The notes beneath the pieces were generated by a model. It was not told the DNA's origin. It saw nothing but the letters and a program-made list of their open reading frames with translations, and ran no database searches. Of a DNA stretch of 64,000 bases, positions 4,984 through 60,823 are shown one piece after another. The DNA is from an uncultured Gammaproteobacteria bacterium (lineage in GTDB: Bacteria; Patescibacteriota; Patescibacteriia; UBA11705; JABHMO01): the NCBI GenBank assembly GCA_964590105.1, contig CAZPYM010000003.1:72179-136178 (forward strand). Reading direction: 5' to 3'. A program made the position numbers and the translations under genes. Within the stretch, counting starts at the first letter, position 1, and each line of letters opens with the position of its first letter.

Positions 4984-7062
4984 ATGCCGAGAGAATATTC
5001 TTTAGAAAATACCAGAAATATAGGTATTATCGCTCACATTGATGCCGGTAAAACTACGGTTTCCGAGCGCATTTTATTTTACACTGGGAAAAAACATAAG
5101 ATAGGAGAAGTTCATGAAGGACAGGCGGAAATGGACTGGATGGAACAGGAAAAGGAAAGAGGCATCACTATTACTTCTGCCGCCACCACTTGTTTTTGGA
5201 ACGGCAAAAGAATTAATATTATCGACACTCCCGGCCACGTGGATTTTACCGCCGAAGTGGAACGATCTTTGCGTGTGCTTGATGGCGGCGTGATAGTTTT
5301 TGACGGCGTAGCCGGTGTGGAGCCGCAGTCTGAGACTGTATGGCATCAGGCCGTGAAATACAATGTTCCGCGCTTGGGATTTATTAATAAAATGGATCGC
5401 ATGGGCGCGGATTTTTATGCTGACATGGAATCTATTTATGAGAGATTGACCAAGGCCGCTCATCCTATTCAGTTGCCGATCGGCGCGGCTGAAACATTTA
5501 GAGGAATTATTGATTTATTTGAAAGGCGAGCTTACATTCATGAGGATGACCTCGGAATAAAAATTAATGAAATCGATGTTCCCGAAGACATGAAAGAAAA
5601 AACAGAAAAATACCGTGGAAAATTAGTCGAAGCTATAGTTGAAAACGATGAAGCTTTGATGGATAAATATTTAGCCGGAGAAGAAATCCCCGTCGCAGAC
5701 TTAAAAAGAGTTTTGCGCAAGGCGACAATAGAAAACAAAATTGTACCAATCTTAGTTGGCAGCGCTCTGAAGAACAAGGGAGTTCAGGCATTACTTGACG
5801 CGATTGTCGACTTTTTGCCCTCACCACTTGAAATTCCACCAATGCAGGGCACTGATCCAAACGATCCTGAAAAAGTCATTACTGTGAACGCCAGCGATGA
5901 AGAGCCTTTTGCCGGCTTGGCATTCAAGATTGCCACTGATCCATATGTTGGCAAGCTTTGTTTTGTGCGCGTTTACTCAGGAGCTTTAAGGTCAGGTTCA
6001 TATGTATTAAATACTTTCACTAATAATAAAGAGAGAATCGGACGTTTAGTGCGTATGCACGCCAATCATCGAGAGGAGGTTAGTGAAGCTTTTGCTGGTG
6101 AAATAGTCGCGGTTATTGGTTTGAAAAATACTTTTACAGGGCATACTCTTTGCGATGAGAGTCGACCGGTTATCCTGGAAAACATTGTATTTCCCGAGCC
6201 GGTTATTTCAGTTGCTATTGAACCGAAAACCAAGGCTGATCAGGAAAAAATGGGTATGGCTATGCAAAAATTGGCTGAAGAAGACCCGACCTTTAGAATT
6301 CGCACTGACGAAGAAACAATGCAAACAATTATTTCCGGCATGGGGGAACTTCATTTGGATATTTTGGTTGATCGAATGAAAAGAGAATTTGGTGTGGAAG
6401 CTAATATTGGTAAACCGCAAGTGGCTTATAAAGAAACAATTAAAAAGACTGCAGAAGCAGAGGGAAAATATGTTCGTCAGTCAGGTGGCCGCGGACAATA
6501 TGGTCATTGCTGGCTTAGAGTCTCTCCTCGAGAACGCGGAGAAGGATTTGAATTTTTGGATGAAGTCAAGGGGGGCGCAATCCCGCGAGAATTTATTCCG
6601 GCAATTCAAAAGGGAGTCAAAGAATCGTTAGACAAAGGAATTCTGGCGGGTTATCCGCTCATTGATGTTCAGGTCACTGTTTACGATGGTAGTTTCCATG
6701 ATGTTGACTCTTCTGAGGCGGCCTTTAAGATTGCCGGTTCTCTGGCTTTTCAGGAAGCCACAAAAAGAGCTTCCCTCGTTCTTTTGGAGCCGATTATGAA
6801 AGTGGAAGCTGTGGTGCCAGAAAAATTTTTGGGCGACGTGGTTGGTGATTTAAATTCAAAAAGAGCGCAAATAAATGAAATGAAAGATCGCGCAAATGCC
6901 AAGGTTGTTGAGGCTCAGGTGCCGCTGGCTGAAATGTTTGGTTATGCGACTTCACTCCGATCAATGACACAGGGGCGCGGCAGCTACTCAATGGAATTTC
7001 TAAAGTATTCTGAAGTCCCGGCCAATGTGGTTGAGGCAATCTTAGTCGCAAAGGGACGGTAA
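4984..7062 (+). CDS. fusA: elongation factor G
   Basis: Start chosen at [25 protein letters not shown] (G1 motif). Full-length EF-G with DTPGHVDF and NKMD motifs. Confidence 0.95.
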
Positions 7063-7080
7063 GAAGCTGTCGTCAATTAT

Positions 7081-7383
7081 ATGCAAAATGCTTGGGACAA
7101 AATCTTAGATTTAATAAAAAGAACCGGTGACCGGTGTATCGTTATTAACGGAAAAGACGGGGATGCCTATGTGGTGATGGATTTGAGAAATTATGAGAAT
7201 TGCGTGCTACGCAAAAGTGAAGTGAGGGACTTGACAGAAGACGAATTATTAGATAGAATTAACCGTGATGTGTCTCTCTGGCAATCAGCACATTTTTCTT
7301 TGAGTAATGATGTTGAAACAGACGAAGAAAAAGATTTCAGGCGGGAAGAGGAAGATGAGTATTATATTGAGCCGGTTGATTAG
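7081..7383 (+). CDS. hypothetical acidic small protein (100 aa) between fusA and tuf
   Basis: Intact ORF 18 nt after the fusA stop. Asp/Glu-rich C-terminus. No known motif. Confidence 0.45.
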   Translation: MQNAWDKILDLIKRTGDRCIVINGKDGDAYVVMDLRNYENCVLRKSEVRDLTEDELLDRINRDVSLWQSAHFSLSNDVETDEEKDFRREEEDEYYIEPVD

Positions 7384-7416
7384 AGCAGGTGGTTCGTCGG
7401 GAAAAATTTAATAAAC

Positions 7417-7444
7417 TTGCAAGATAAATATTTTGTGCTATAAT
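7417..7444 (+). promoter_or_regulatory. sigma70-type promoter for tuf (TTGCAA-16-TGcTATAAT)
   Basis: -35 TTGCAA at 7417-7422 and an extended -10 TGcTATAAT ending at 7444. The tuf start is 85 nt downstream. Confidence 0.6.
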
Positions 7445-7529
7445 AGTTGCACAAAAAATAATAATTAATTTCAGCGGCTGGATTGTAACCCTGATTAAAT
7501 TTAGGGGCCGCTTAAAGGAGAATAATACA

Positions 7530-26913: not shown

Positions 26914-26989
26914 GCTCGTATAGCTCAGTGGTTAGAGCACCGCCCTTATAAGGCGGGGGTCGATGGTTCAAATCCATCTACGAGCACCA
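26914..26989 (+). tRNA. tRNA-Ile with anticodon UAU (as read from the loop CTTATAA)
   Basis: 76 nt cloverleaf: acceptor GCTCGTA/TACGAGC, D arm GCTC-AGTGGTTA-GAGC, anticodon stem CCGCC/GGCGG, T arm GATGG-TTCAAAT-CCATC, encoded CCA. The scaffold closely resembles bacterial tRNA-Ile(GAU) but has TAT in the anticodon. Confidence 0.75.
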
Positions 26990-27050: not shown

Positions 27051-27127
27051 GGGCAGCTAGCTCAGTTGGTTAGAGCGTCTCGTTGACGTCGAGAAGGTCA
27101 CAAGTTCGACTCTTGTGCTGCCCACCA
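27051..27127 (+). tRNA. tRNA-Val (anticodon GAC)
   Basis: 77 nt. Acceptor GGGCAGC/GCTGCCC, anticodon loop TTGACGT, T arm ACAAG-TTCGACT-CTTGT, encoded CCA. Confidence 0.8.
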
Positions 27128-33800: not shown

Positions 33801-34483
33801 TTGCCGACTGGTATTTGGAAATTTCAAAAGTTGCCCTTCGGCAAGATCAGGGTGACAATCGAAATTTAATTTTGAATTCAATTTTTCGGGAATTGCTGAA
33901 ATTGTGGCATCCTTTTGTGCCGTTTGTGACAGAGGCTGTTTGGTCCCTCGCTATGCTCGGGATGACACAGCAAGCAAAAAGTATTATGGTTTCTGATTGG
34001 CCAGCGGTCGAAAAGGGATTAATTGATGAAAAAGCGGAAAAAGGATTTGAAAAAATTCAAGAAATAATTATTAAAATCAGAAATTTGCGGGCTGAATACA
34101 AAGTCAATCCGGGGAAGAAGATTTCTGTTTCCATCAAAGGCGCTTCAATTGGCGAAAATGAAATAGTTGTAAAAACCTTAGCTCGTCTGGAAAAAATTAC
34201 TTACGTAAAAATAAAACCGGAAAAAGCAGCCGGCGCGGTTGTCGGTAAAAGGGAGATTTATTTGTTGTTATCAGATTTGGTTGATGTTGATAAAGAAAAA
34301 GAGAGACTGGAAAAAGAAAAAGCCGACCTTGAAAAATATTGCTTCGGATTGGATAAAAAACTTCAGAATAAAGAGTTTACGAAAAATGCTCCGGTGGCCG
34401 TGGTTGACGGAGAGCGGGCAAAACTCACGGAGGCGGAAGAAAAATTAGGAAAAACAAATACGCAATTAAGTGAATTAAAATAA
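30845..34483 (+). CDS. valS: valyl-tRNA synthetase carrying an in-frame histidine-phosphatase (PGAM-like) + ASCH domain insertion
   Basis: HLGHA (HIGH), CP1 editing domain (TTRPETKLGDTAVAVHPDD), DWCISRQIWFGHRIPVWY, KMSKS, and a C-terminal coiled coil. Between WY (about 32154) and QDEDTLDTWFS (about 33158) about 330 extra residues contain IVLRHGQAESN and VTHGD (histidine phosphatase) and G-SKTIETR (ASCH). Length is 1212 aa against roughly 880 typical. Confidence 0.9.
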   Translation: MEIPKAYDPKEHESRIYKMWEEAGLFNPDNLEPKSKKHFSIVLPPPNVTGTLHLGHAAMLAIEDLMVRYKRMNGFDTLWMPGTDHAAIATQNVVEKKLYKEEKKTRHDLGREKFLKKVEQYVEGSKNVIHNQLRKMGSSLDWSREAYTLDEVRSKAVKKVFKQMYEDGLIYRGYRIVNWCPRCHSTLADDEVDYKEEKAKIYTFKYDKNFPFAIATTRPETKLGDTAVAVHPDDKRYAKYIGKTFVADFCGVKLNIKVIADDQVEKDFGTGALGVTPAHSLIDYEMAQKNKLPVIKVIDEDGKITVAGGKFQGLSAEQAREKIVEELKKQGLLEKQEENQHNLSVCYRCKSVVEPLPSEQWFISISSKFKVKSEKLRKIIGKKEASLKEISLAVVKSGSIKIIPERFEKIYYHWMENLHDWCISRQIWFGHRIPVWYKKQKQIIVLRHGQAESNARDQLNSDILRNHFHLTVEGREQAAAAAEELQKEKIDIIFCSDFERAKQTAKIVADKSGIKQIIEDARLREVGVGDFEGKSDMDFTKFRQQNFDKWHKGNPHNIESFVELRSRVFNFLDEIKQKYGDKKILMVTHGDVARVAQAYGKILSDKEIYGLDYPDTGKFYRVDLNQKTSGIELSFRNRKIFEAIKSGSKTIETRALNPEEPDRYFGNIKGGDQIILNYKQGEYILESLKSKVKAARRYKTIEELLAKEKMSKIFPGKNIDYKKSYSDLVPGNLEKISKNGIIAFELGKVEKYNKNITLRVSEEELPAAEWKQDEDTLDTWFSAGLWTFSTLLPKDWDGKEFKSKDLERFHPTTVLETGYDILFFWVARMILMTTYATGEIPFETVYLHGLIRDKDGDKMSKSKPETAIDPVEAGNKYGFDAVRLSLLIGNTAGNDIRLYDEKIEGYRNFVNKLWNISRFVLQNNKLQDTNYKQITNNKLQTVALTLADKWILSRFNKLKCEVNKLLDEYNFSQAGEILREFTWNDFADWYLEISKVALRQDQGDNRNLILNSIFRELLKLWHPFVPFVTEAVWSLAMLGMTQQAKSIMVSDWPAVEKGLIDEKAEKGFEKIQEIIIKIRNLRAEYKVNPGKKISVSIKGASIGENEIVVKTLARLEKITYVKIKPEKAAGAVVGKREIYLLLSDLVDVDKEKERLEKEKADLEKYCFGLDKKLQNKEFTKNAPVAVVDGERAKLTEAEEKLGKTNTQLSELK

Positions 34484-56000: not shown

Positions 56001-56611
56001 TCAAAAATTATGAAAAGAAATTACAGGGCCTGGTAACGCCGCTTTCAGAATTAAAAATCGGGGGCGACAGGCAATTGGTGCGCATTGCCGGCGTGGTGGC
56101 CAGCGTGAAAAAAATCACCACAAAAAAAGGCGATCCGATGCTATTTGTTTCCCTGTCCGATGCTTTGCGGGCGGTTGAAATATTAGTATTCCCTCGTTTG
56201 TACAAGGAAGATGAAGTGATCTGGCACGACGGCAAAGTTTTGATGGTAGAGGGAACAGTTTCCGACAAAGATGAAGAAATAAAAATTTTAGCCAATAAAG
56301 TCTGGGCCATTGATGAGATTGGCCTCGAGACAATACCAAAGGAAATGAACAGCGAATCACCGCGAGGCAGATTTAGTGGCGCCGGCCGGGGGAAAACGGT
56401 TTTGCGGGCGATAATAAATTACCCGGCCGGCGCAACTCATGATTTTGCCAATCAGGTAAAAATGCTTTTCATGGCAATCCCCGGCCGGCATCAAGTAATA
56501 TTTCGGATTCAAGACAAGCTGATAAAAACTAATTTTTTAATCAGCGTGGATGAAGAAAGTAGGTTGAAAATAGAATCTTTGCTTGGCAAGGGGACACTGA
56601 AGCAATTATAA
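53099..56611 (+). CDS. dnaE: DNA polymerase III alpha subunit
   Basis: PHP domain HVHSHYSLLDG, polymerase core, OB fold. 1170 aa. Confidence 0.92.
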   Translation: MFMKYTPLHVHSHYSLLDGLTKIDDLVGKAKEDGMTALALTDHGVMYGAIEFYQKCKAAGIKPIIGVEAYIVNDRKEKKASEEERFHLILLAKNYEGYKNLIKLTTLAHLEGFYYKPRIDWEILRKYSKGLIGLSACLAGEIPRAITRGLDDEKIELVIKKYLNVFGKDNFYLEVQHHPNIPDQKVVNNKIFEIAKRLGLEVVATNDSHYLNTEDAEAHDILICLQTKKLLSDTDRMSYLGEDFSLYTSQQMTDNFRGNPEVLENTNKIADKCEIEIPLGEIRLPYFEVPEGQTDFECLRDLCYHNIARRYNFDYKKEQLIEAEKKVIGRLEFELGVIQRTGYSSYFLIVQDFTSWARSKGIIVGPGRGSAAGSIVSYLLGVTNLDPLQYDLLFERFLNPDRISMPDIDIDFADERRAEVIHYVEEKYGKDHVGQIITFGTMAARAAARDVGRVLDMPYTFCDQVAKLIPMGIKLDEAINKVVEVKELYRSNDDARRLLDFARKLEGVARHASTHACGVVITREPLDNYCPCQFARDQEDVIVTQYSLHPVEDLGLLKMDFLGLKNLTIIERACEIVEKMHGQKIVIDDLPLGDIKAYELFQNGQTTGVFQFESSGMKRYLKQLKPTEFEDLIAMVALYRPGPLNSGMVDEFIARKHGLKKIAYVHPLMENALKNTYGVIVYQEQVMQLSKDMAGFTGGQADTLRKAIGKKIADLMEKMKTVFIEGCIKNNISKQIAEQTFESMEKFAEYGFNKSHAACYALIAYQTAFLKANFPTEFMAALLTSDQGNLDRVAIEIDECQQMGIEIMPPSINESYSTFTVVADSLKQGTPRIRFGLNAIRNVGENVAREIIHERKDNGAYIELEDFCSRLGNRALNKKSLEGLIKSGAMDLFGSRSQLLDNVDKIIMFIREVEASRATKQVNIFDLNNSPDATLPRILLRQSKDLGLKQILAWEKEFLGLYVSEHPFKNYEKKLQGLVTPLSELKIGGDRQLVRIAGVVASVKKITTKKGDPMLFVSLSDALRAVEILVFPRLYKEDEVIWHDGKVLMVEGTVSDKDEEIKILANKVWAIDEIGLETIPKEMNSESPRGRFSGAGRGKTVLRAIINYPAGATHDFANQVKMLFMAIPGRHQVIFRIQDKLIKTNFLISVDEESRLKIESLLGKGTLKQL

Positions 56612-56790
56612 AGCAAAGGGCAGTTTTTACATCTAGTTTGAACACGGGTAAATTGCTTTTTTCTTTTATTCTGGTAAACTATAGGTGTGATATAGGCAGG
56701 TTCATATAAGTTTACAATTAGATTAATAAATAGGGAAAGCCGGACAGGGAGCCCCTCTATCTTATTGGCCTGTTTAGCCCCATCTTCCAT

Positions 56791-57933
56791 ATGTATATCA
56801 AAAAACATTCAAGAGTTACGGAGGGATACAAAAAAATGGTTTTCAGTTTTGTGGTAATCACGGTTATTTTGGTGGGAATAATTTTATATTTTTCAGCCAG
56901 CAAAGCCCTGATCAAAGTAGTGCCAAAAGCGTCAGCCATTGAAACTGATTTTGTTATTGATGTTATTAGTGATGGCGGTTCGGCAGAGGGCGCTATGCAG
57001 GGAGTATTGTATGAAACAGAAGTAGAGGGAACTATCGAAGGAGTGGCCACTGGGACAGAGATAGTTGATGGTAGCGCGATTGGCGAAGTGCTTTTGATTA
57101 ACAAGCGGGCAGAATCGCAAACTTTGGTTAAAACAACGCGACTTCTAACGCAAGATGGAATATTGTTAAGGTTAATGGACAAAGTCAATGTTCCTGCCGG
57201 CGGACAGATTGAAGCGGCTGTTTATGCTGATGATCCAAATGCTTTTGAAGAAATTCAACCGACTACATTTACTATCCCCGGACTTTGGGAAGGTTTGCAA
57301 ACGCAGGTTTACGCGGAAAGCACGACTGTGTTAAAAAGTACCGGCGATTCAATCAAAGTAGTAAAAGCAGTTGACATTGCCCGCGCCAAAGAAGAATTGA
57401 CAAATCAGCTTTATGATCGGGCGATCGAAAAATTTAAAGAACAATTACCAAATGGAAATTATGTTTCGCAGGTAGTTTCAAAAAAAATTATTGAAGAGAG
57501 CGTAGACGCTTCGGCTGGCGACAAAAAAGACAAGTTTACGTCAAGCATGAAGTTGAGCGCGACATTAATCGGCGTTTCGCAGGACAAAATTATTGAATTG
57601 GCGGGCGAGAGACTAAAGGCCGCGGTTTCCGGCGGTCAGGATCTGGCTAATTTGGATCCTAATACGCTGTCATATAAAGTGCAGAGCTTTGACGAACAAA
57701 AAATGACCGCCAATATAAAAGTTCATGCCGCAGGTTCGGCAGTCGTCAAGGAAAATAATGAAATATTTCAGAAAGACAAGCTGATTGGTCTCAGTCCAAA
57801 GGGAGTGGAGCTGTATCTGGCCAATTTTGACGAAGTGGAATCAGTGACTGTTGAGCTTTCTCCTTTTTGGGTGAAAAATATTCCAAAATTAAAAGATCAT
57901 ATTAATATTGTGATTGTCAGCCCGAATAAATAA
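56791..57933 (+). CDS. hypothetical membrane-anchored protein (380 aa; the start may be at 56836, MVFSF...)
   Basis: One N-terminal TM helix, followed by a soluble domain rich in small residues. No motif recognised. Confidence 0.5.
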   Translation: MYIKKHSRVTEGYKKMVFSFVVITVILVGIILYFSASKALIKVVPKASAIETDFVIDVISDGGSAEGAMQGVLYETEVEGTIEGVATGTEIVDGSAIGEVLLINKRAESQTLVKTTRLLTQDGILLRLMDKVNVPAGGQIEAAVYADDPNAFEEIQPTTFTIPGLWEGLQTQVYAESTTVLKSTGDSIKVVKAVDIARAKEELTNQLYDRAIEKFKEQLPNGNYVSQVVSKKIIEESVDASAGDKKDKFTSSMKLSATLIGVSQDKIIELAGERLKAAVSGGQDLANLDPNTLSYKVQSFDEQKMTANIKVHAAGSAVVKENNEIFQKDKLIGLSPKGVELYLANFDEVESVTVELSPFWVKNIPKLKDHINIVIVSPNK

Positions 57934-57979
57934 GGACGGAGAAGGGAGTAAAAGTGGAATACAAAATAATAAAACACAA

Positions 57980-58010
57980 AGAACGCTGCGAGATTGGCGT
58001 TCTTTTGGTA
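57980..58010 (+). terminator. Rho-independent terminator
   Basis: gaacgc-tgcgagattg-gcgttc followed by ttttgg. Confidence 0.5.
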
Positions 58011-58021
58011 AGGCTTATTAG

Positions 58022-58049
58022 TTGACGAAAATTTTTCAAGTGCTATAAT
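58022..58049 (+). promoter_or_regulatory. promoter (TTGACG-16-TGcTATAAT) driving a short non-coding transcript
   Basis: Strong -35 and an extended -10. No ORF follows before a terminator at 58213-58240. Confidence 0.55.
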
Positions 58050-58055
58050 AAAAAT

Positions 58056-58238
58056 AATCACAAGCGATTGGCCTGGCTACCAACCGGGCACCACAAGGTT
58101 TTGCAATAAAAAGCTAACTAAGTTTGTGAGAACAATATAAGAAATTAAGAGCTTTGGCGTTTGTTTGTCCGAAGAACTTGGGTGGAACCCCCTGGCGTAT
58201 GCCTGGGCCCAAGACTAAGTAAAATTAGTCTTTTTTAT
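58056..58238 (+). ncRNA. putative small structured RNA (about 180 nt; 6S-like long hairpin?) between promoter and terminator upstream of dtd
   Basis: Bounded by the promoter at 58022-58049 and by terminator agactaa-gtaaaa-ttagtct plus a T-run (58213-58240). The 5' segment (ttggcctggctaccaaccgggcaccacaagg) is largely complementary to the 3' segment (cttgggtggaaccccctggcgtatgcctgggcccaag), predicting a long closing helix around an AT-rich interior. There is no coding potential. Confidence 0.4.
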
Positions 58239-58242
58239 TTGT

Positions 58243-58704
58243 ATGAAGGTTTTATTACAAAGAGTAAATTTAGCTTCCGTTGAAGTTGACAATAAAGTTG
58301 TCGGAAAAATCGGCAAAGGGCTTTTGGCTTTTTTGGGCGTTGGCAAAGAGGATTCTGAAGTGGAAGTAACTACTTTGGTCGAAAAGTTAATAAACTTGCG
58401 GATTTTTCCAGTTGAAGACCCTTCGACAAGCTCAGGGCAGGGAAAACATTTTGACAAATCATTATTGGAAGTTGGCGGCGAGGTTTTGGTGGTTTCCCAG
58501 TTTACTCTTTATGCTAATTGCGAAAAAGGCAGGCGGCCTGATTTTTTTGACTCTGCCGATCCTAAAAAAGCAGAAGATTTGTACAATAAATTCATTGATA
58601 AATTAAAATCTAAAAACATTAAAACTGAAGCAGGAAAATTTGGCGCGTATATGCAAGTCAATTTAGAAAATGACGGGCCGTGTACTTTCTGGCTGGAGAG
58701 ATAA
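58243..58704 (+). CDS. dtd: D-aminoacyl-tRNA deacylase
   Basis: MKVLLQRVNLASVEVDNKVVGKIGKGLLAFLGV...SQFTLYAN...GRRPDF...NDGPCTFWLE. Confidence 0.8.
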   Translation: MKVLLQRVNLASVEVDNKVVGKIGKGLLAFLGVGKEDSEVEVTTLVEKLINLRIFPVEDPSTSSGQGKHFDKSLLEVGGEVLVVSQFTLYANCEKGRRPDFFDSADPKKAEDLYNKFIDKLKSKNIKTEAGKFGAYMQVNLENDGPCTFWLER

Positions 58705-59017
58705 CGGGCACTCATTCTTGTCATTTCGACCATCGTGGAGAAATCACAAGAATGGAGAAGGGATTTCTCGACTCCTCCTTCGTCGTCGCTCGAAATGACA
58801 AAAATGGGGAAGCGGACGTCGCTCGAAATTGCCAAAGATCTTGGCTATGTTTCAGAATATGAATATAAAGTTCTGCTCGAACAGTCCATTAAAGTCCACA
58901 AAATCACCAAGGGCTTAATAAAGAGGACTCGCTCCCTCTCAACATGATTTATGCTTCATTCTTCATGTTTCATGCTTAATTCATAATTCATTATTCATAA
59001 TTCATACTTCAAATTTT

Positions 59018-60823
59018 ATGAACAAAGAACAGTTAGAATTAATGCGTCATTCGCTTAGCCACATAATGGCTGAGGCAGTACTTAAATTTTACCCAAACGC
59101 CAAGCTGGCAATCGGGCCGGCGATTGAAAACGGCTTTTACTATGACTTTGATTTGGGGGATGAAGCCTTTTCAAAAGATGATTTAAAGAAAATTGAAAAA
59201 GAAATGAGAAAAATTGTCAGTGCCGATCAAAAATTTGAGCATTTTAATTTACCGATTGACGAAGCTAAAGAAAAACTGGCGGGCAATCCTTACAAACTGG
59301 AAATGGTGGATCAATTGGCGGTTGAGGGAGAAAAAGAAATTAGTTTTTACAAAAATCTTGATCAGGATGGCAATGAAGTTTTTGTTGACATGTGCCGCGG
59401 TCCGCACGTTGCCTCAACAAAACAAGTCGGCGCTTTCAAACTGCACAAAGTTGCCGGCGCATACTGGCGGGGAGACGAAAAAAATAAAATGCTTCAGCGT
59501 ATTTACGGGTTAGCTTTTGAAACGCGGGAAGAAATTGAGAAATATTTAAAACTGCTCGAAGAAGCGGAAAAGCGCGATCATCGGGTGATTGGCAAAGACT
59601 TGTTTTTGCTTGATCCGATGGTCGGACTTGGACTCGCCATGTGGAAGCCAAAAGGCGCTCTGCTCTGGCACATTATGGAAGATTTTTGGTACCAAGCGCA
59701 TCTGCGGGCAGGTTATCAACTGGTTAGATCGCCACATATTGGCTCGCGGCAATTGTGGGAAACTTCAGGGCATTGGAATTTTTATAATGACAGCATGTAT
59801 CCGGCGATTGAAGTCAGCAAATCATTGAAAGAAGTGCAGCTGGGACAAACAGTCGACCGGCCAAAAGAAGAATATCTGTTAAAGCCGATGAATTGCCCAT
59901 TTCATGTTCAGCTGTATAAAGCAGAAATGTGGTCGTACAAGGATCTGCCTTTGCGCTGGGCTGAATGCGGTACGGTTTACCGATATGAAAAATCAGGAGA
60001 GCTTTCCGGCCTGGTGCGCGTTCGCGGTTTTACCCAGGATGACGCGCATATTATTTGCACAAAAGATCAGGTAGAGCAGGAATTAGTCAGAGTTGCGGAA
60101 TTTATTAAATATATATTTGAAACATTTGGCTTCAAAGAATATAAGATCTGTTTGTCGCTTCGCGACCCTCAAAACAAAGATAAGTACGCCGGCAATGACA
60201 GCGGTTGGGAATTTACAGAGGCGGTCATGGAAAAGGTCGCTGGACAGCTGGGCGTGGAATATGAAAAAGAGCTTGGCGAAGCGGCGTTTTACGGGCCGAA
60301 ACTAGATTATAAGATAAAAGATGTGCTTGGTCGCGAGTGGCAATGTTCAACTCTGCAGTTTGATTTTAATCTGCCTGAGAAATTTAAAATGACTTATATT
60401 AATAATGAAGGGAAAGAAGAACAGCCATTTATGTTGCACCGGGCTTTGTTCGGTTCGTTTGAGCGATTTGTCGGTTTATTGATTGAGCACTATGCCGGCG
60501 CTTTTCCATTGTGGTTGTCGCCAGAACAAGTCCGTGTTTTGCCGGTATCGGAAAAGTTTGATGATTATGCCAAAGAAGTTGTGGAAGAGTTGATAAAAAA
60601 TGGCTTGCGCGCAAGGCTGGATAGTGAGAGTGAATCTCTGCCAAAGAGAATCAGAAACGGAGAAAAAGCCAAGGTGCCATATTTATTGGTTGTCGGAGAA
60701 AAAGAAGCGGCTGATCGGACAGTGGCGGTGCGTCAGCGGTCGCAGGGAGATTTGGGCGCAAGAGCGATTGCTGAATTTATTTCAGAGGCAGTTCAGGCAA
60801 ATGAGAAAAAAATAATTTGGTAA
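59018..60823 (+). CDS. thrS: threonyl-tRNA synthetase (lacks the N-terminal TGS domain)
   Basis: N2 editing domain HSLSH, class II motifs, C-terminal anticodon-binding domain. 601 aa. Confidence 0.92.
   Translation: MNKEQLELMRHSLSHIMAEAVLKFYPNAKLAIGPAIENGFYYDFDLGDEAFSKDDLKKIEKEMRKIVSADQKFEHFNLPIDEAKEKLAGNPYKLEMVDQLAVEGEKEISFYKNLDQDGNEVFVDMCRGPHVASTKQVGAFKLHKVAGAYWRGDEKNKMLQRIYGLAFETREEIEKYLKLLEEAEKRDHRVIGKDLFLLDPMVGLGLAMWKPKGALLWHIMEDFWYQAHLRAGYQLVRSPHIGSRQLWETSGHWNFYNDSMYPAIEVSKSLKEVQLGQTVDRPKEEYLLKPMNCPFHVQLYKAEMWSYKDLPLRWAECGTVYRYEKSGELSGLVRVRGFTQDDAHIICTKDQVEQELVRVAEFIKYIFETFGFKEYKICLSLRDPQNKDKYAGNDSGWEFTEAVMEKVAGQLGVEYEKELGEAAFYGPKLDYKIKDVLGREWQCSTLQFDFNLPEKFKMTYINNEGKEEQPFMLHRALFGSFERFVGLLIEHYAGAFPLWLSPEQVRVLPVSEKFDDYAKEVVEELIKNGLRARLDSESESLPKRIRNGEKAKVPYLLVVGEKEAADRTVAVRQRSQGDLGARAIAEFISEAVQANEKKIIW

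Follow-up and report, generated by a model that had tools for sequence, protein, structure and literature searches.

A stretch of 64,000 nt from contig CAZPYM010000003.1 (positions 72,179 to 136,178 of the forward strand; assembly GCA_964590105.1) of a candidate-phyla-radiation bacterium, called the window below, carries at positions 58056-58236 an RNA leader directly upstream of dtd, encoding a D-aminoacyl-tRNA deacylase, and thrS, encoding threonyl-tRNA synthetase (ThrRS). This 5' leader of the dtd-thrS operon is very probably a tRNA-Thr-specific T-box riboswitch that would act by transcription attenuation. We adopted this interpretation because the UGGAACC sequence in a 7-nt bulge, the covariation of the helices, the overlap between antiterminator and terminator, the association with thrS and the threonine codons all agree. 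The structural elements, their conservation and covariation, and their exclusive association with thrS are direct observations, and the positions of all features are listed in Table 1.

The 3' half of the leader follows the T-box plan closely. The sequence UUGGGUGGAACCCC at 58178-58191 fits the conserved T-box sequence AGGGUGGNACCGCG, and its 10-nt core GGGUGGNACC matches at 10 of 10 positions; GGGTGGNACC occurs once in the 64-kb window against 0.13 occurrences expected, and GGGUGGAACC is likewise unique. Folding without constraints returned helix A1, the 7-nt bulge and helix A2 in six of the six leaders tried (the window and five homologues), with an antiterminator energy of -15.9 kcal/mol in the window. 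The AAGAG of the linker matches the canonical RAG/AGUG element that stands before Stem III. At gathering thresholds, Rfam detected only three tRNAs in the whole window; in a permissive scan of 57900-58300 with E up to 10, the T-box family RF00230 was the sole notable match (22.4 bits, E = 0.0045), the rest being noise. The model aligned the 3' half column by column, from the linker and Stem III through AACUUGGGUGGAACC and the second helix to CCCAAG. In the homologous leader L161 the match reached 35.8 bits (E = 1.2e-6), and the L161 linker, UUAAUAAAUUAAGAG, nearly equals the T-box consensus uuaauaaauaaAGuG of the Rfam alignment.

The antiterminator is followed by an intrinsic terminator with which it shares bases. 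In the window, the 5' AAG of the terminator (58211-58213) doubles as the 3' end of helix A1, and in every leader the terminator uses bases of the 3' strand of A1 and is followed by a U-run. The overlap consists of the last three A1 bases in four leaders (AAG in the window, L166, L171 and L018) and of the equivalent AGG in L001; in these leaders the shared bases make up one side of the lowest three pairs of the terminator stem, adjoining the U-run. Most or all of the CCCAAG(G) strand is captured by the terminator in L161 (CCCAAGG/CCUUGGG), in L163 and L164 (CCAAGG/CCUUGG) and in L173 (CCAAG.../...CUUGG). In L161, L164 and L173 a gap of 50-130 nt separates the hairpin and U-run from the start codon, which argues for control of transcription rather than of translation. 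The terminator that a preliminary description of this DNA had placed just before dtd is indeed present as a hairpin with a U-run: six consecutive U's occupy 58231-58236, the first two of them being the last two bases of the stem, and the run ends 6 nt from the dtd ATG (58243), so that there is no space for a further promoter. The stem is weak, with two G-C pairs and -7.8 kcal/mol, and it was not listed by the consensus terminator scan because that scan demands at least three G-C pairs.

To the 5' side, the promoter named in the preliminary description (TTGACG-16-TGcTATAAT) has 11 of 12 consensus matches as well as the TG, and it was the top site of a promoter scan within 56500-59500. A sigma-70-like promoter is kept in nine of nine homologous leaders and ends 8-10 nt 5' of the first helix. 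From its position, transcription would start at about 58055-58057, and the transcript would begin only about 1-3 nt 5' of helix P1. The earlier statement that the region lacks an open reading frame (ORF) is essentially right, since the only ORFs overlapping the leader are mechanical ones of 40 aa (TTG start, 58161..58283) and 32 aa (minus strand). Leader-peptide attenuation was rejected, as there is neither a conserved ORF nor a run of Thr codons.

Homologous leaders were sought upstream of dtd loci drawn from genomes and metagenomes, which among the matches listed were mostly distant dtd loci. The set comprises at least nine distinct leaders of Patescibacteria, namely those of the window, L161, L163, L164, L166, L171, L173, L001 (Parcubacteria GW2011_GWA2_40_23) and L018. 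The Dtd proteins behind the homologous leaders are 50-80% identical, and the closest named Dtd relatives among the matches listed belong to Candidatus Kuenenbacteria and Falkowbacteria (Patescibacteria, or candidate phyla radiation, CPR). A profile built from five leaders, with the window excluded, found 58054-58236 from end to end (E = 2.2e-34) and nothing else in the window. Insertions in Stem III or helix A2 are seen in L001, L018, L164 and L171. The contigs of P0005 begin within the T-box, and a pattern scan of viral contigs for the leader gave chance matches only.

Covariation was assessed on a curated alignment, A3, a hand-cut core from which loops and insertions were removed to fit the proposed helices, and on an unedited MAFFT alignment. 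In the curated alignment 97.1% of the cells are paired and 22 of the 35 pairs are altered on both sides; the covariation score of 0.707 was reached by 0 of 500 shuffled alignments, which scored 0.30, and fell to at most 0.18 when the partners were slid. The unedited alignment gave 88.7% paired cells and a score of 0.547, again reached by 0 of 500 shuffles. Changes on both sides affect all six pairs of Stem III, all six pairs of hairpin P2 (100% paired in the curated and plain MAFFT alignments) and five of the ten pairs counted for helix P1, which is also supported on the plain MAFFT alignment, and three of the four pairs of helix A2 covary.

Table 1. Features of the dtd-thrS leader and its surroundings in the window
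Feature	Position	Strand	Sequence or remarks
Hairpin 3' of upstream ORF	57979..58006	+	AAGAACGC/GCGUUCUU + U-run; read from sequence
Promoter, sigma-70 type	58022..58049	+	TTGACG (58022-58027), 16-nt spacer, TG (58041-58042), TATAAT (58044-58049)
Decoding domain closed by helix P1	58058..58129	+	UCACAAGC (58058-58065) pairs with GUUUGUGA (58122-58129)
GA bulge and mini-helix P1b	bulge 58066-58067; UUG 58068-58070 with UAA 58119-58121	+	conserved C58118 precedes UAA
Hairpin P2	58071..58089	+	GCCUGG, loop CUACCAA (58077-58083), CCGGGC
Hairpin P3 and variable stretch	58090..58117	+	P3: ACC-ACAA-GGU (58090-58099)
Linker	58130..58151	+	GA-ACAAU-AUAAGAAAUU-AAGAG; consensus GR-ACAAU, ~11 nt, RAGNG
Stem III	58152..58174	+	CUUUGG, 11-nt loop, CCGAAG; aligned as Stem III by the Rfam T-box model
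Antiterminator helix A1	58177-58182 with 58208-58213	+	CUUGGG/CCCAAG
Antiterminator bulge, 7 nt	58183-58189	+	UGGAACC
Antiterminator helix A2	58190-58207	+	CCCUGGC-GUAU-GCCUGGG
Intrinsic terminator	58211..58236	+	AAGACUAA (58211-58218), GUAAAA, UUAGUCUU (58225-58232), U-run
dtd (D-aminoacyl-tRNA deacylase)	58243..58704	+	Pfam PF02580, E = 7.7e-52; first regulated gene
thrS (threonyl-tRNA synthetase)	59018..60823	+	Pfam tRNA_SAD, tRNA-synt_2b, HGTP_anticodon; second gene of the operon

The 5' half of the leader, which would decode the tRNA, consists of several helices in a closed domain, 72 nt long in the window and 55-105 nt among the leaders. Its minimum free energy (MFE) fold, computed for this domain alone and without constraints, consists of P1, P2 and P3 in the window, L163, L173 and L018. 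The closing helix P1 has 5-8 bp among the leaders. The geometry of P2 is fixed in nine of nine leaders, with a 6-bp stem and a 7-nt loop; loop positions 3-7 (ACCAA) are invariant, the loop following the format Y-Y-ACC-A-A, and it thus carries the Thr codon ACC (58079-58081) followed by the purine A58082. The P3 stem covaries among the leaders (ACC/GGU, AUC/GAU, ACU/AGU, AUG/CAU), while its loop and the adjoining stretch differ in length and sequence, the stretch making an extra hairpin, P4, in some relatives; RNAalifold on the core alignment with excised loops is not meaningful for P3. A conserved (R)CUAA follows the variable stretch, before the 3' strand of P1. The mini-helix P1b (UUG/UAA) would accommodate the G-to-A change in L164, a thin support for it. 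A pseudoknot between GAUUG and the CAAU of the linker is disfavoured, since L164 and L166 break it and a connector of 3-4 nt cannot bridge the 8-bp P1. Two other roles for the P2 loop, imitation of the tRNA 3' end and pairing with the T-box sequence, were rejected, because just 3-5 bases are complementary, which follows trivially from CCA/UGG.

These results bear on the preliminary description, in which the region was taken for an independent small RNA (sRNA) gene with extensively complementary ends, as in 6S RNA. A trans-acting sRNA, 6S-like or other, would indeed be expected to have a strong promoter and a terminator of its own, and an RNA of about 180 nt would accumulate from such a gene; the long closing helix is also present in the MFE fold of the window, with 23 long-range pairs. 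This fold, however, is not significantly more stable than those of shuffled sequences (z = -1.57), and the closing helix is missing from the MFE folds of six of the eight homologues. On the nine-leader alignment its pairing, 57.4%, does not reach the mean of the shuffles, 470-487 of 500 of which are equal or better, and covariation is absent; the helix is a chance feature of the window sequence. Thus the fold and covariation check that had been proposed speaks against the closing helix and for the T-box plan with its compensatory changes. The proposed comparison with Rfam gave no match to 6S, to the signal recognition particle (SRP) RNA or to other sRNA families at E up to 10, and yielded the weak T-box match instead. 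Moreover, the conserved structure is that of a T-box leader acting in cis on dtd-thrS: it always lies upstream of dtd on the same strand with no promoter-sized gap between, it co-occurs with thrS, and its U-run adjoins the dtd start codon. We therefore consider a trans-acting sRNA gene very improbable. What stands of the earlier view is that the regulatory RNA is non-coding, structured and conserved and that it has a promoter and a terminator of its own; its terminated product would be about 180 nt long.

The case for threonine rests on the downstream genes and on the bulge. dtd is followed by thrS on the same strand for all complete leaders with intact downstream sequence (L001, L018, L161, L163, L164, L166 and L173) and also in the partial loci L162, L165, L167, L169, L170 and L174. 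Only L171/L172 depart from this: the gene after dtd there encodes an ISL3 transposase, and little further sequence remains on these contigs. The leader is always upstream of dtd and on the same strand, one small ORF intervening in L001. None of the other dtd loci retrieved, about 150 in number, has thrS nearby, and the CPR dtd loci without thrS have neither the leader nor a T-box motif. The bulge reads UGGA in all leaders, which predicts a U73 discriminator base in the cognate tRNA-Thr. In bacteria U73 is limited to the Gly and Cys tRNAs, 18% of the Thr tRNAs and a few percent of the Arg tRNAs; it occurs in only 5 of 259,651 bacterial Leu tRNAs, Leu and Ala tRNAs having A73 (PMC6097841, Table 1). 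Since UGGA needs U73, threonine fits, and the conserved CUAA and GCU strings are excluded as specifiers. Accordingly, (R)CUAA was rejected as the specifier, as its triplet varies (ACU, GCU, AUU) while thrS is constant, and so was CUA (Leu), which conflicts with UGGA because tRNA-Leu has A73 both in the window and bacteria-wide.

Two further explanations keep the RNA in cis. One is a plain 5' untranslated region (UTR) of dtd with a constitutively leaky hairpin and no ligand sensing, the outcome that the preliminary description had set against its own sRNA gene. It comes nearer the truth than the sRNA gene does, and the weak terminator and the thermodynamic preference for the antiterminator in the window would suit it; the hairpin, though, would be the regulated terminator of a conserved switch. 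A plain UTR leaves unexplained why UGGAACC is invariant, why the geometry of the bulge is kept, why Stem III, A2, P1, P2 and P3 covary and why Thr codons are retained at 50-80% Dtd identity, and we regard it as very improbable. The other is a protein operator, in which ThrRS would regulate its own synthesis by binding a mimic of the tRNA-Thr anticodon arm, as in Escherichia coli thrS, where such tRNA-mimic control is known (PMC9976931). The operon encodes ThrRS, and P2 resembles an anticodon stem-loop. Threonine identity depends on G35 and U36, which ThrRS reads, but the loop of P2 has the codon ACC, which would pair with a Thr anticodon instead of imitating it. The element furthermore ends in a T-box antiterminator and terminator, not in a ribosome-binding site. 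A protein operator is thus extremely unlikely.

Several observations weigh against the T-box interpretation itself. With 22 bits, the RF00230 model scores the window far under its gathering threshold of 93 bits, and in the homologues other than L161, seven leaders, it gave no match at E up to 1. The decoding half does not align: Rfam makes it an insertion, as in L161, where the insertion runs from P1 through ACAAU, or misaligns it into the promoter. No K-turn (GA motif) was found in the leaders, the junction being GAU-UG/CU-AA and not GAU-GA/GA; AGAGA and UGNRA platform loops are absent at conserved positions, and neither an S-turn nor a Stem II or IIA/B was found. K-turn, S-turn, platform and Stem II motifs are generally required in transcriptional T-boxes (PMC7583486). 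No tRNA-Thr gene was detected in the window, in the fetched CPR loci or in the 10 kb past the right end of the window. The terminator of the window, at -7.8 kcal/mol, is weaker than the antiterminator and has just 3 nt in common with it, so that on paper the off-state looks leaky and the switch looks to lean toward read-through. Finally, the hand-cutting of A3 inflates its numbers, which the MAFFT control answers in part only.

As to family membership, the leader was found to contain the T-box sequence in a 7-nt bulge, a competing terminator, a Stem III with the RAG element and an AU-rich linker, and a purine-followed codon for the amino acid of the regulated gene (ACC-A, ACA-A). A canonical Stem I and a score at the RF00230 gathering threshold were not found. 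By its 3' half the element belongs to the T-box mechanism class, and it fails the Stem I features and the curated score of the family. Short forms of Stem I are typical of the translational ileS leaders of Actinobacteria, which need a K-turn and Stem II (PMC7583486). The leader described here pairs a short decoding domain with a terminator; of the translational class II features, neither the CGUUA F-box nor the AGUA/GAA S-turn was found in the leaders, which end in a hairpin and U-run. The T-box database TBDB was built from the Rfam model and an Actinobacterial class II model, both of which would miss the dtd-thrS leader. In the literature searched we found no report tying T-boxes to CPR, Patescibacteria or Parcubacteria, or to dtd.

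By analogy with the T-box family (reviewed in PMC7583486), tRNA binding, switching, the start site and the reading of one of the Thr codons may be pictured as follows. The strong promoter would start the transcript, and the nascent leader would fold into P1 closing P2 and P3, a linker of about 22 nt, Stem III and the T-box. If threonine or ThrRS activity runs short, the anticodon of uncharged tRNA-Thr would pair with a Thr codon of the leader, most likely the ACC in the anticodon-loop-like 7-nt loop of P2 (CU-ACC-AA). The free NCCA 3' end of the tRNA would then pair with UGGA in the 7-nt bulge and stabilise A1 and A2; this would withhold the AAG at 58211-58213 from the terminator stem, and the polymerase would enter dtd and thrS. 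Charged tRNA, unable to make the contact through its 3' end, would let the terminator form, releasing an RNA of about 180 nt.

Which Thr codon would be the specifier is a separate question. The ACC in the P2 loop is the favoured candidate, with somewhat better than even confidence, because the loop always has 7 nt in the arrangement Y-Y-ACC-A-A, the format of an anticodon loop. Pairs of tRNAs with complementary anticodons form complexes far more stable than those of free triplets, and usual T-box specifiers are NNC codons. It is credible that such a pre-stacked loop-loop contact could hold the tRNA without a platform. The ACC lies at about nt 24-26 of the transcript; in T-boxes with an ultrashort Stem I the codon is likewise near the 5' end, at nt 16-18 (PMC7583486). 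Accessibility in the folding ensemble was similar for the two candidate codons, both being mostly unpaired.

The second candidate is the ACA at 58132-58134, in the single-stranded linker 3' of P1. If it were the specifier, P1, P1b and P2 would be a Stem I lying along the tRNA, with the invariant P2 loop touching the tRNA body and not the anticodon. ACA followed by a purine is invariant in nine of nine leaders; the bases before it are purines (AGA, AGG, AA) or UAA, so that it resembles the canonical GAA-NNN-A on the 3' side of Stem I. Its distance from Stem III is 16-17 nt in eight of nine leaders, the spacing between P1 and ACA varying by 1-5 nt, and P1, P1b and P2 together make about 17 bp with the GA bulge, comparable to the canonical glyQS Stem I from specifier to apex. 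The motif CUACCAACC, which covers the ACC loop, also occurs in a glycine-type leader (L301, 9-17), which would not be expected if ACC were just a Thr codon; there, however, the motif lies in a stem, in another context, in a sequence cut by the contig end. Furthermore, with a start about 1-3 nt before P1, a specifier loop, S-turn and lower helix cannot form around ACA, and three base pairs on their own, two of them A-U, would hold the tRNA very weakly. The loop of P2 is unlike the AGAGA/UGNRA platform consensus, and P1, with its 5-8 bp, is a poor fixed ruler. The ACAAU stands where, in canonical leaders, the F-box end (CGUUA) comes before the linker, and its conservation may have a different cause. 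By a simple count, an accidental Thr codon would be found at the loop centre in about 6% of cases and anywhere in the conserved 5-mer in about 20%. On this balance we regard ACA as a possible but doubtful specifier.

With ACC as the specifier, the leader would point to a minimal class of transcriptional T-boxes in the CPR, in which the codon is the middle triplet of a 7-nt hairpin loop (pyrimidine-pyrimidine-NNN-A-A) shaped like an anticodon loop and contacts the tRNA by loop-loop kissing of the anticodon-anticodon type; we are evenly divided over whether such a class exists. It would do without the K-turn, the S-turn, the elbow platform and Stem II, which are thought to be needed for fast co-transcriptional capture of tRNA.

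Glycine-type relatives were also seen. In the Candidatus Parcubacteria contig Ga0233431_1000099 (L082), a T-box-like leader at 5917-6108 lies directly upstream of glyS (6157..7461); it contains CUCGGG-UGGAACC-GUCC...GGAC-CCCGAG, a terminator GAGACC.../GGUCUU with U7, and CU-GGC-AA in its 5' part, and it gave no Rfam T-box match at E up to 1. L301 (1-262), whose glycyl-tRNA synthetase is 87% identical to that of L082, has the 3' half in common with it, whereas the 5' part is cut by the contig end and is different. The L301 9-mer equals the P2 loop and first stem bases of four Thr leaders and sits in the hairpin stem CCAACC-UUUA-GGUUGG; it may reflect coincidence, recombination or a motif that is not amino-acid-specific. 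The P0128 loci are without a leader. Elsewhere in the CPR (Gracilibacteria, Peregrinibacteria, Peribacteria and others), the gene directly 3' of dtd is glyS and not thrS, and a T-box motif is lacking (L002, L008, L026, L048, L168, L302 and L303). It seems that dtd travels with class II aminoacyl-tRNA synthetase genes in reduced genomes.

Several features of the surrounding sequence were recorded. The hairpin at 57979-58006 is probably the terminator of the upstream ORF 56791..57933, which has no Pfam match, and would likely keep transcription from further upstream out of the leader promoter; in L163 a hairpin like it stands directly 5' of the promoter. The three tRNA genes of the window all have an encoded CCA and A73, including tRNA-Leu; tRNA-Ile (anticodon UAU) is at 26914-26989, followed by tRNA-Val(GAC) at 27051-27127. 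The spacer between dtd and thrS (58705-59017) is 313 nt long, against about 80-110 nt in L163, L166, L170 and L173. The ORFs within it are all short and without a Pfam match, and the one of 70 aa is unlike the 118-aa ORF found at the same place in L161/L162; L296 has there a 128-aa ORF of the 23S rRNA IVS protein family (PF05635). Within dtd, a GC-rich 24-nt insert, CCTTCGACAAGCTCAGGGCAGGGA (58420-58443), adds PSTSSGQG, giving a Dtd of 153 aa against 145 aa in most relatives. Strings like this insert (CCTTCG...CTCAGGATGACA, or GTCCTTCGCCAAGGCTTCGGCNGGCAGGCC) occur in Stem III, P4 or A2 of L163, L164, L018, L171 and L301, and there is a near copy of it at 33835-33851 of the window.

T-boxes are a textbook case of one structured RNA reading another. 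A terminator-type T-box of about 180 nt with a small closed domain as its whole decoding half would put to the test the rule of current models that timely capture of the tRNA by transcriptional T-boxes depends on a long Stem I and its elbow-binding platform (PMC7583486). Such a leader would offer a very compact natural tRNA sensor, and it would extend T-box regulation to the Patescibacteria, in leaders that the Rfam model misses. In the annotation of these reduced genomes, control by tRNA-Thr charging would be recognised for thrS and dtd; if the switch is indeed of a minimal class, the chiral proofreading enzyme DTD would come under tRNA-Thr control as well. Should the leader prove to be an ordinary T-box whose Stem I has degenerated, the gain would be modest, namely a better covariance model for CPR genomes.

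Among known systems, the class I T-boxes (RF00230, e.g. Bacillus subtilis thrS/tyrS) share with the dtd-thrS leader the promoter-proximal position, the AU-rich linker ending in RAGNG, Stem III, GGGUGGNACC, the 7-nt UGGNACC bulge between A1 and A2, the competing terminator, the downstream synthetase gene and the codon followed by a purine. The dtd-thrS leader differs from them in being without the K-turn, the specifier loop with its S-turn, the double T-loop platform and Stem II or IIA/B, in scoring 22-36 bits against 93, and in having dtd as the first regulated gene. The glyQS T-boxes are likewise compact leaders of about 180 nt composed of a Stem I domain, a single-stranded linker and Stem III with no Stem II, and their bulge also reads UGGA and pairs with a U73 tRNA; unlike the dtd-thrS leader, they keep a long Stem I with K-turn, specifier loop and platform, and their amino acid is Gly, not Thr. 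The ultrashort-Stem-I T-boxes of Actinobacterial ileS (Mycobacterium/Nocardia) also have the codon near the 5' end on a short hairpin, no elbow platform, and a Stem III and A2 prone to insertions, whereas the dtd-thrS leader has a terminator, only a P3 of 3-5 bp beside P2, and the extra closing helix P1. The E. coli thrS operator similarly controls thrS through a leader hairpin shaped like an anticodon stem-loop; that hairpin, however, is an anticodon mimic bound by protein at the ribosome-binding site, whereas the dtd-thrS leader carries a codon and ends in a T-box.

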